A stretch of DNA of 4,214 nucleotides, taken from positions 1 through 4,214 of IMG/VR virus record IMGVR_UViG_2565956624_000005. One strand, 5' to 3'. Below the pieces are notes generated by a model that saw nothing but the letters and a program-made list of their open reading frames with translations, made no database searches and was not told where the DNA came from. Source of the DNA: a virus (taxonomy: Duplodnaviria; Heunggongvirae; Uroviricota; Caudoviricetes). Below, in pieces: positions 2,676-4,214 of the stretch. Position 1 is the stretch's first letter; the number at the start of each line of letters is the position of its first letter. A program made the position numbers and the translations under genes.

Positions 2676-3034
2676 ACGAATATCAGTTTGTGCTTCCATA
2701 CCCGCCGTCGGTGAATACCTACTGGCGAAGACGGGGAAGCCAATATTACATAAGCGATAAAGGCCAGAAATACCGAAAAGACGTTCAGCAAATCATCCAC
2801 CAACTCAAGTTAGATATTTTCACCAAATCACGACTCCGCATCAAAGTCATCGCAGACGTTCCAGACTCCCGCCGCCGCGACCTCGATAACATCCTGAAAG
2901 GTTTACTCGATTCCCTTATCCACGCCGGATTTGCGGAAGACGACGAGCAATTCGATGACATTCGCGTAATTCGTGGTGTGAAAGTACCAGGCGGACGGCT
3001 TGGAATAAAAATCACCGAACTGGAGAACGCATGA
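2672..3034 (+). CDS. rusA: Crossover junction endodeoxyribonuclease RusA (Holliday junction resolvase)
   Basis: ORF 2672..3034 (120 aa). Hallmark RusA segments: LPYPPSVNTYW, DVPDSRRRDLDNILKGLLDSL, GGRLGIKITE; length typical of RusA. ATGA overlap with ybcO stop. Confidence 0.9.
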   Translation: MNEYQFVLPYPPSVNTYWRRRGSQYYISDKGQKYRKDVQQIIHQLKLDIFTKSRLRIKVIADVPDSRRRDLDNILKGLLDSLIHAGFAEDDEQFDDIRVIRGVKVPGGRLGIKITELENA

Positions 3035-3219
3035 ACGCCACAATTCAAACGATACCAGAGCTTCTTATCCAGACACGAGGCAATCAGACCGAAGTGGCGA
3101 GGATGCTTTCCTGTGCAAGAGGAACAGTGCTCAAGTACAACCGAGACAGCAAAGGCGAGCGTCATGTAATAGTTAACGGCGTCCTGATGGTCAAACAGGG
3201 AAAGAGGGGAAGACGATGA
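3031..3219 (+). CDS. ninH: NinH family protein (small putative DNA-binding protein)
   Basis: ORF 3031..3219 (62 aa). The core TIPELLIQTRGNQTEVARMLSCARGTVLKY…VIVNGVLMV resembles remembered lambda NinH. ATGA overlap at both ends. Confidence 0.8.
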   Translation: MNATIQTIPELLIQTRGNQTEVARMLSCARGTVLKYNRDSKGERHVIVNGVLMVKQGKRGRR

Positions 3220-3734
3220 GCATAAGAGAACTAAACCTCACCAAAGAACAGCACGATTGGCTGAATGGCTGGCTTGAACTGTGGGGCGCATGGGTTTATT
3301 CAGGCCGCCTGGAAAAGCGCATGAGCAGCGTAATAGCGAAATTCATGGAGAGCGTAGAGCCGGGAAGAGTTATGACAAGGCCAATGTGTAATGATGATGA
3401 TGGAATGTTGATTTCTCAGGTCGTCGATTCCGTCATGTGCATTGACAAGAAAGCCTTTGGCATCCTCCTCAGCTACTACGCTCATGGTTCATCTAAGCGA
3501 GCAATTGCATCCTACTATCACGCGACTGCAAAGCCACGCAAGATGTGTGGACGTGGTGGCGAGGGATGGAGAAAACCTTCACTGGCAACCTGTAGAAACG
3601 AAATTGACGACATCCTGAAAGCGTCATTATTTGTTTTATACCAGCCAATGCAAAATGCTTTCAAAATGCGTAAACGTGTTGAGAAAGTTAAGCATATTGC
3701 TGTTAAAAGCCTTGACATGCAATTAGCCATTTAG
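3216..3734 (+). CDS. Q: Late-gene antitermination protein Q (non-lambda type, Q21/Q82-like family)
   Basis: ORF 3216..3734 (172 aa). Last gene of the nin operon, immediately upstream of a candidate late promoter, tRNAs and holin. GAGGGG at 3204-3209, 6 nt upstream. No similarity to remembered lambda Q; family assignment is by position and general resemblance and needs an HMM search. Confidence 0.7.
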   Translation: MSIRELNLTKEQHDWLNGWLELWGAWVYSGRLEKRMSSVIAKFMESVEPGRVMTRPMCNDDDGMLISQVVDSVMCIDKKAFGILLSYYAHGSSKRAIASYYHATAKPRKMCGRGGEGWRKPSLATCRNEIDDILKASLFVLYQPMQNAFKMRKRVEKVKHIAVKSLDMQLAI

Positions 3735-3741
3735 CCATAAT
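3712..3741 (+). promoter_or_regulatory. Candidate sigma70 late promoter (pR'-like): -35 TTGACA, 18-nt spacer, -10 CATAAT
   Basis: TTGACA at 3712-3717 and CATAAT at 3736-3741. The -35 and spacer lie inside the last codons of Q; the position between Q and the lysis genes is the canonical pR' location. Confidence 0.45.
3723..3738 (+). repeat. Perfect tandem direct repeat TTAGCCAT x2 within the promoter spacer/-10 region; candidate Q-binding element
   Basis: TTAGCCAT at 3723-3730 and again at 3731-3738, followed by AATTAG. Read directly from the sequence; the functional assignment is inference. Confidence 0.3.
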
Positions 3742-3751
3742 TAGAAGGTAA

Positions 3752-3797
3752 GCTGCCGTTAGTGACTCTTAAGTTGCAACGGTGGCTTTTTTTATTT
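3752..3797 (+). terminator. Putative intrinsic terminator (tR'-like): imperfect hairpin followed by a T-run
   Basis: GCTGCCGTT (3752-3760) can pair with AACGGTGGC (3778-3786), 9 bp including two G.U pairs, 17-nt loop, then TTTTTTTATTT (3787-3797). The large loop lowers confidence. Confidence 0.45.
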
Positions 3798-3872
3798 GGG
3801 TCAGTCGTATAAAGGTCATTACGGAAGGCTGTTAACCTTCTTATCGTGGTTCGAGTCCACGCTGTCCCGCCA
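3798..3872 (+). tRNA. tRNA-Asn (anticodon GUU)
   Basis: Manual cloverleaf: acceptor GGGTCAG / CTGTCCC (one T.T mismatch), 3-bp D stem with GG-containing loop, anticodon stem GAAGG/CCTTC with loop CTGTTAA (U33, GUU, A37), 4-nt variable loop, T arm CGTGG-TTCGAGT-CCACG, discriminator G, encoded CCA. Anticodon loop and T loop match remembered E. coli tRNA-Asn. Confidence 0.6.
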
Positions 3873-3877
3873 AATAT

Positions 3878-3953
3878 GCTGGTTTAGCTCCAATGGTAGA
3901 GCAGTCGCCTTGTAAGCGAATGGGTAGCGGTTCAAGTCCGTTAACCAGCACCA
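3878..3953 (+). tRNA. tRNA-Thr (anticodon UGU)
   Basis: Manual cloverleaf: perfect acceptor GCTGGTT / AACCAGC, U8, D stem GCTC/GAGC with loop CAATGGTA, anticodon stem (4 bp plus G.A) with loop CTTGTAA (U33, UGU, A37), 5-nt variable loop, T arm AGCGG-TTCAAGT-CCGTT, discriminator A, encoded CCA. Confidence 0.7.
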
Positions 3954-4069
3954 TAACTGAGCCGTAGCCACTGACTATCCTGAACTCATCAGCGATAGTT
4001 ACGCTGCGGCCTTCTTTTCCCCTTCCCAATATAAGAACTACGCAATCCGTTACTGGCGGAGGCGTTGCT

Positions 4070-4214
4070 ATGAAATCAATGGACAAAATCTCAACTGGCA
4101 TTGCTTACGGAACATCCGCTGGTAGTGCGGGATACTGGTTTTTGCAGTGGTTGGATCAGGTCAGTCCGTCACAGTGGGCTGCGATTGGAGTGCTTGGAAG
4201 CCTTGTGTTGGGTT
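4070..4214 (+). CDS. S: Holin, phage 21 S-type pinholin (class II), dual-start motif; 3' end beyond window
   Basis: Not in the ORF track because no stop lies within the window. From ATG 4070: [48 protein letters not shown]…, matching the remembered S21 sequence. GGAGG at 4058-4062, 7 nt upstream. Second in-frame ATG at 4079. Confidence 0.85.

Follow-up and report, generated by a model that had tools for sequence, protein, structure and literature searches.

A tandem repeat in the late-gene control region of a lambdoid prophage as a probable binding element for a phage 21-family Q antiterminator

The window examined here (the whole stretch of analysed DNA, 4214 bp) is 100% identical over its entire length to a prophage segment of E. 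coli FDAARGOS_1288 and extends from the nin region into the beginning of the late genes. Based on RefSeq and Pfam, the nin-region genes are arranged in the order PAPS-reductase-like gene, NinE, NinF, KilAC antirepressor-like gene, YbcO/DUF1364, RusA, and NinH. Stop and start codons overlap as ATGA at 921-924, 2672-2675, 3031-3034, and 3216-3219, and the pairs joined in this way are the reductase-like gene and NinE, YbcO and RusA, RusA and NinH, and NinH and Q. Tight translational coupling via ATGA overlaps is typical for lambdoid nin regions. The Q gene lies 3' of NinH, and the features from this gene onward are as follows.

Positions 3216 to 3734, plus strand: Q antiterminator gene of the phage 21 Q family, 172 aa (RefSeq name 'antiterminator Q family protein')
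Positions 3712 to 3717, plus strand: -35 hexamer of pR', TTGACA, with homologous counterparts in the -35 of phage 21 and in the annotated promoters of Sf6 and HK75
Positions 3721 to 3728, plus strand: predicted upstream Q-binding subsite AATTAGCC, with the core TTAGCC (3723-3728) at -25 to -20, in the register of phage 21 QBEu ATTGAGCA
Positions 3729 to 3736, plus strand: predicted downstream Q-binding subsite ATTTAGCC, with the core TTAGCC (3731-3736) at -17 to -12, in the register of phage 21 QBEd AATGAGCA
Positions 3736 to 3741, plus strand: -10 hexamer CATAAT, 5/6 to consensus, separated from the -35 by an 18-bp spacer
Position 3748, plus strand: predicted transcription start (G), placed 7 nt past the -10 from the phage 21 register, with an uncertainty of ~3 nt either way
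Positions 3749 to 3755, plus strand: putative sigma-dependent pause element TAAGCTG, -10-like, at +2 to +8, identical to the phage 21 SDPE
Positions 3750 to 3793, plus strand: tR' intrinsic terminator (hairpin 3750-3788 plus a T7 run at 3787-3793)
Positions 3798 to 3872, plus strand: tRNA-Asn (GTT), the first gene of the late transcript (ARAGORN, Rfam RF00005), also found in phage 21 and Sf6
Positions 3878 to 3953, plus strand: tRNA-Thr (TGT) (ARAGORN, Rfam RF00005), also found in phage 21 and Sf6
Positions 4070 to 4214, plus strand: 5' part of a class II holin gene of the S21 pinholin type (RefSeq annotation), the first late protein gene

The Q protein matched the PDB Q21 chains 6jnx/6p18 (E-value 5e-90 over residues 1-162) and the Pfam family PF06530, Phage_antitermQ (89.9 bits; cutoff 26), and the product of the gene upstream of the promoter is, by sequence, a close homologue of phage 21 Q. 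Its residues 1-100 are nearly identical to those of Q21, and thus the RNA-polymerase-engaging N-terminal part is retained, whereas residues 100-162 are far more diverged and are followed by a 10-residue C-terminal extension. Because the window Q is 10 residues longer than Q21, its coding sequence covers the -35 and both subsites: the final 10 codons and the stop overlap the -35 and the binding element, and the TAG codon (3732-3734) lies inside the second repeat. In the Q21 structure, H95, A124, R127, and R128 contact bases and R113 makes a minor-groove contact (Shi et al. 2019, PMC6606751). S93, K94, R113, A124, T125, and R127 are kept in the window protein, whereas two base-contacting residues are changed (H95R and R128N), so that R95/N128 stand in place of the H95/R128 of phage 21 Q.

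The initial annotation had placed TTGACA at 3712-3717, CATAAT at 3736-3741, and TAAGCT at 3749-3754, all of which proved exact, and had read the first two as a near-consensus promoter at the pR' position over the end of Q. This reading holds: order and spacing agree with the curated phage 21 record (GenBank OL657228), in which a -35, QBEu, QBEd, a -10, the start site, an SDPE at +2, a terminator, tRNA-Asn, tRNA-Thr, and the S21 pinholin follow one another, and the homologous 30 bp carries a pR' annotation in the Sf6 and HK75 records. In a promoter scan, TTGACA-18 bp-CATAAT was the sole 11/12 site of the window. The phage L paper puts its start ~3 nt further downstream than the 3748 register (bioRxiv 10.1101/2020.10.05.325894). 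The exact direct repeat, TTAGCCAT at 3723-3730 and 3731-3738, was likewise confirmed, and its proposed role as the Q-binding element appears well founded in that Q21 uses a direct repeat with an 8-bp period in the same register; what did not stand was the frame, which was off by 2 bp. We therefore dropped TTAGCCAT as the subsite frame in favour of the phage 21 frame, shifted by 2 bp, because the latter accounts for the constancy of the final repeat base, with which the -10 begins: in the window, the final base of the downstream subsite is the first base of the -10 hexamer. The predicted Q-binding DNA of the window, written as one stretch, is AATTAGCCATTTAGCC. A short match to the start of the upstream subsite, AATTAG (3739-3744), overlaps the -10/discriminator and is probably due to chance; it was considered as a third subsite and rejected, having no counterpart in other family members.

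TAAGCT had been put forward as a candidate pause element, and together with the next base it forms TAAGCTG, identical to the phage 21 pause element, with the hexamer at +2 to +7 if the phage 21 start register applies. The 5' arm of the tR' hairpin overlaps this element, as in the phage 21 annotation, and the terminator is 100% identical to that of phage 21. Folding of the RNA from 3748 to 3800 gave -20.2 kcal/mol (z -4.8), and none of 200 shuffled sequences was equally stable. A simple terminator scan of the window did not report tR'; since folding shows a strong hairpin with an internal bulge, this miss is not evidence against the terminator. An Rfam search of 3600-4100 returned the two tRNAs only and matched no family to the leader RNA. 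Both tRNA genes are located in the interval from tR' to the holin gene, differ hardly at all from their phage 21 counterparts, and would be expressed only upon Q-dependent read-through. The holin gene is ~99% identical to phage 21 S21 in a pairwise MAFFT alignment. It opens with ATG AAA TCA ATG (4070-4081), the second ATG being at 4079 and the two starts 9 nt apart; the annotated dual starts of the phage 21 S21 antiholin/pinholin are likewise 9 nt apart. In the source genome, genes for lysozyme RrrD, a lysis protein, and terminase (RefSeq) follow 3' of the holin, so that late genes lie downstream of the terminator.

Chance expectations were estimated from 3000 dinucleotide-preserving shuffles of the window. 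Of these, 176 (5.9%) contained an exact tandem 8-mer at some position and 164 (5.5%) a promoter scoring 11/12 or better, so that each feature alone is just mildly unusual. An 8-mer nested in a promoter directly at the end of the Q gene is far less likely by chance. The real weight of the case lies in the arrangement conserved across relatives.

In phage 21, two Q protomers bind a direct repeat with an 8-bp period between the -35 and the -10 (Shi et al. 2019, PMC6606751; Yin et al. 2019, bioRxiv 10.1101/651190). The upstream subsite is weak, the downstream subsite is moderate, and the two act cooperatively when together (Yin et al., bioRxiv 10.1101/651190). The subsites are direct repeats of TGAGCA, and Q21 action requires the C:G pair at -21 as well as that at -13; during pausing, the bubble spans +3 to +15 and sigma region 2 sits on the -10-like element (Shi et al., PMC6606751). 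Element by element, phage 21 and the window compare as follows.

-35: TTGACA in phage 21; TTGACA in the window
Bases 5' of the upstream subsite: TC in phage 21; TGC in the window
Upstream subsite: ATTGAGCA in phage 21; AATTAGCC in the window
Downstream subsite: AATGAGCA in phage 21; ATTTAGCC in the window
Next 12 bases (remaining -10 to +1): ACACTATTCGCA in phage 21; ATAATTAGAAGG in the window
Pause element: TAAGCTG in phage 21 and the window alike

Relative to the -10, the start, and the pause element, the register of the window equals that of phage 21 base for base: in both, the subsites end at -12, the start (a predicted one in the window) follows 7 nt past the -10, and the pause element begins at +2. 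With the start taken as 3748, C3727 is the counterpart of the -21 C:G pair and C3735 that of the -13 pair. The spacer is 17 bp in phage 21 and 18 bp in the window, whose extra base sits between the -35 and the upstream subsite. The -10 hexamers also differ, AACACT in phage 21 (1119-1124 of locus L004) against CATAAT in the window, the latter (5/6) being much nearer to consensus. The type of site constrains promoter strength, since the -10 begins with the base on which the subsite ends, and this base is C or A and never the consensus T. The cores TGAGCA and TTAGCC match at 4/6 positions and are not equal, and this mismatch appears to mark a separate specificity class in the Q21 family, not a separate mechanism.

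Block-wise identity in the pairwise MAFFT alignment with phage 21 reveals a mosaic of three parts.

Positions 3216 to 3485: ~97% identity; Q residues 1-90
Positions 3486 to 3748: ~65% identity; Q from ~residue 91 to the C-terminus, the -35, both subsites, the -10, and the bases to +1
Positions 3749 to 4214: ~99% identity; pause element, tR', tRNAs, and holin

The diverged block of ~265 bp comprises exactly the DNA-binding half of Q and its presumed target, and on this evidence it looks like a swappable specificity cassette.

All elements of a Q21-type cassette are present at the locus, i.e., a Q homologue, a promoter at the 3' end of Q, two 8-bp subsites, a pause element, a terminator, and late genes. 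On the strength of this homology, we consider it probable (roughly 0.88) that 3712-3793, with pR', the Q-binding element, the pause element, and tR', makes up the late-gene control cassette of a lambdoid prophage with a phage 21-family Q, and the tandem repeat very probably serves as the docking site for the Q antiterminator of this phage. The architecture, homology, and register were observed directly, as was the family-wide covariation described below, and we infer the start site, pausing, Q binding, and antitermination by carrying them over from phage 21.

The late promoter element itself is already known, being annotated in Sf6 and HK75 and proposed in phage L. In Sf6 (gene 59), the sequence from the -35 through tR' is identical to the window but for one T in the terminator run; in the Sf6 record of 2004, the corresponding 30 bp are labelled 'putative late promoter, nearly identical to phage 21 late promoter' and an approximate qut site is marked downstream, and the HK75 record annotates pR' and tR' likewise. 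In phage L (gene 23), AATTATCC/ATTTAGCC replace the phage 21 QBE and are 'quite likely' the L QBE, and gp23 is divergent from residue 94 to the C-terminus with 3/6 contact residues changed (bioRxiv 10.1101/2020.10.05.325894; PMC8022706). The upstream allele differs among these phages: the window and Sf6 have a perfect TTAGCC repeat, whereas phage L, ST64T, and HK75 have TTATCC. A literature search with sequence strings yielded no further relevant paper, and a literature search for binding or transcription assays on the window allele found none. The general logic of a binding element between the -35 and the -10, a sigma-dependent pause, and a terminator before the late genes is shared with lambda pR' (PMC6606751). 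However, Q-lambda and Q21 have no obvious sequence homology, their structural likeness being limited to an analogous helix-turn-helix motif, and Q-lambda also needs a -35-like element that is absent from other lambdoid late promoters (PMC6606751); the window Q belongs to the Q21 family.

In HK629 (locus L349; 760-900 and 1531-1581), the -35, binding element, and -10 are the same as in the window, and from -6 on there is a different leader of the kind found in Hafnia phage yong1, with a terminator of its own and a pause-like TATGCTG. Farther 3' in HK629 are an HNH endonuclease gene and then an orphan second TAAGCTG and tR'; several E. coli prophages share this HNH insertion. The leader switch at -6 to +1 (~3742-3748 of the window) suggests that this joint is a recurrent recombination point.

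Q21-family loci were collected from annotated phages, from one genome per species, and from IMG/VR (~330 related loci overall), and for each locus the Q open reading frame was located together with the best -35/repeat/-10/pause arrangement. The first survey set consisted of 136 loci with 35 distinct protein/site combinations, counts that do not represent independent evolutionary events, the sample being in part near-identical and the per-position profile weighted toward near-identical sequences. In 35/35 combinations, two period-8 repeats end 13 nt 5' of a TAnnnT hexamer, whose A and T are invariant partly by construction because the extraction script demanded them at pause-hexamer positions 2 and 6; in an independent MAFFT alignment of six diverse loci, the T, A, and T of the pause hexamer are invariant. 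Alignment with related late promoters, a check suggested in the initial annotation, shows the same arrangement recurring across the family.

Two residues of Q vary together with two subsite positions. Subsite position 4 (core position 2) is T in all N128 proteins and G in all R128 proteins except that of the register-shifted L048, and subsite position 8 (core position 6) is C with R95 and A with H, Y, I, or L at residue 95, with one exception (L018, in which R95 is paired with the phage 21 site). L048 comes from an Arsenophonus MAG; its register is off by 1 nt, its Q protein carries R113M, and the locus may be decaying. The classes found are listed below.

Non-Arg 95 (H, Y, or I) with R128: core TGAGCA
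R95 with R128: core TGAGCC
R95 with N128: core TTAGCC (the class of the window)
H or L at 95 with N128: core TTAGCA
R124 proteins: TGGNCA or TGACCA
Q127: TGGCAC, with L045 (Edwardsiella hoshinae) combining an R124/Q127 protein with TTGGCAC repeats
E124 with K128: TTACCC, with L025 and L139-L164 (Cedecea-type loci) carrying TTTACCC repeats

All four states of residues 95 and 128 occur, each with matching DNA, and the further classes suggest a role for residues 124 and 127 in reading the middle of the subsite. In a held-out test, further loci were fetched with four rare-class queries, and 21/21 new combinations obey both residue rules. Two loci that seemed to violate the rules (L247 and L299) were rejected as violations, since they end at the Q stop codon and unrelated sequence had been taken as their site. 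In phylogenetic trees, the N-terminal halves of Q group by host clade and the C-terminal halves cluster with site type. As the structure papers give no per-base contacts for residues 95 and 128, the assignment of residues to bases is drawn from the covariation itself. Close relatives have two common upstream subsites, AATTAGCC (51 loci) and AATTATCC (33 loci; TTATCC in ~40%), and the downstream subsite ATTTAGCC is nearly invariant among them. This polymorphism of the upstream subsite indicates that the perfect tandem repeat is an allele and not a requirement, and a dispensable perfect repeat would fit the weak upstream subsite of phage 21.

Considering that the repeat overlaps the final Q codons, that its upstream copy is variable in relatives, and that 5.9% of shuffled windows hold an exact tandem 8-mer, it might be a neutral slippage duplication or a by-product of coding the C-terminal tail of Q (..QLAI-stop), unrecognised by Q. 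However, all family members examined have period-8 repeats in this register, changes in repeat sequence go along with changes at the base-contacting residues 95 and 128, and the repeats of phage 21, L026, and L029 are non-coding, with Q ending 28-42 nt upstream; we regard such an origin as extremely improbable. It is also highly improbable that the true Q target lies 3' of the -10, at the Sf6 'qut site' (~3739-3787 of the window), and that the repeats are mere spacer DNA. Although the 2004 Sf6 record sets its 'approximate' qut site there by analogy with phage 21 and the stretch is 100% conserved with phage 21, that annotation is older than the 2019 structures that locate the Q21 binding element between the -35 and the -10, and the stretch consists of the pause element and the terminator, which in the older qut concept were included without being a DNA-binding site. 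Being identical between phages with different Q DNA-binding halves, 3739-3787 cannot carry the specificity.

A third possibility, very unlikely in our view, accepts the repeat as the target but holds that in this allele class the downstream subsite (3729-3736) alone is functional, with the upstream copy as a dispensable or weak helper. The near invariance of the downstream subsite would agree with this, as would an upstream subsite that is TTAGCC or TTATCC here and more degenerate in other genera, and the upstream subsite of phage 21 alone has low affinity (bioRxiv 10.1101/651190). In contrast, substitution at -21 lowers antitermination in phage 21, where the upstream protomer enters the RNA exit channel (PMC6606751), and the family as a whole strongly conserves the upstream-subsite bases T-25, A-23, and C-21.

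If both subsites form the docking site, as we prefer, the cassette could operate in the following way. Sigma-70 RNA polymerase would initiate at ~3748 from TTGACA-18 bp-CATAAT, and sigma region 2 would then re-bind the -10-like TAAGCT (+2 to +7) and cause the polymerase to pause; as in phage 21, the bubble at pause capture would be expected to span +3 to +15, with the complex backtracked to +14. Two Q protomers would occupy AATTAGCC and ATTTAGCC, at this stage directly upstream of the paused polymerase, and the upstream protomer would load into the RNA exit channel. The modified polymerase would pass the tR' hairpin (3750-3793) and continue into the tRNA, lysis, and structural genes, whereas without Q a terminated leader RNA of ~45 nt would be made. 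TTAGCC and R95/N128 would form a matched specificity pair, different from the TGAGCA and H95/R128 of phage 21.

The survey also raises a broader hypothesis, to which we give slightly better than even odds: the Q21 family may be split into mutually orthogonal Q/QBE classes, with residue 128 responsible for core position 2 and residue 95 for core position 6, and the ~265-bp cassette (3486-3748) may be exchanged as a whole by recombination in near-identical flanks. In such a code, Arg at residue 128 may go with G and Asn with T:A, Lys and Ser also being seen with T; at residue 95, Arg may go with C:G and His, Tyr, Ile, or Leu with A; and the fit at the middle positions is apparently adjusted by residues 124 and 127. 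In this scheme, the window would belong to the R95/N128-TTAGCC class. The phage L paper noted the differing site and three contact residues (bioRxiv 10.1101/2020.10.05.325894), and our literature search found no statement of a two-position code. What is added here is modest, namely the apparent family-wide residue-to-base covariation and the sharply bounded cassette that seems to unite half of Q with its target.

The late cassette sets the timing of prophage lysis and of virion gene switch-on. In related Stx phages, the same cassette controls toxin production. For the window, the result is a confident annotation and not a discovery; it is the way in which Q residues 95 and 128 pair with two subsite positions across the family that has some wider value. 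Should this pairing be confirmed, it would predict which co-resident prophages cross-activate one another's late genes and would provide orthogonal antiterminator/site pairs for synthetic circuits.

Inside Q, the minus strand at 3528-3541 (TTGCGTGGCTTTGC) fits TTGY-N6-TTGY, at the place of the annotated CII site and antisense promoter paQ of phage 21. It is the sole match in the window, yet 150/200 shuffles contain at least one match, and the case for a CII-type site at 3528-3541 is thus one of position, not of statistics.
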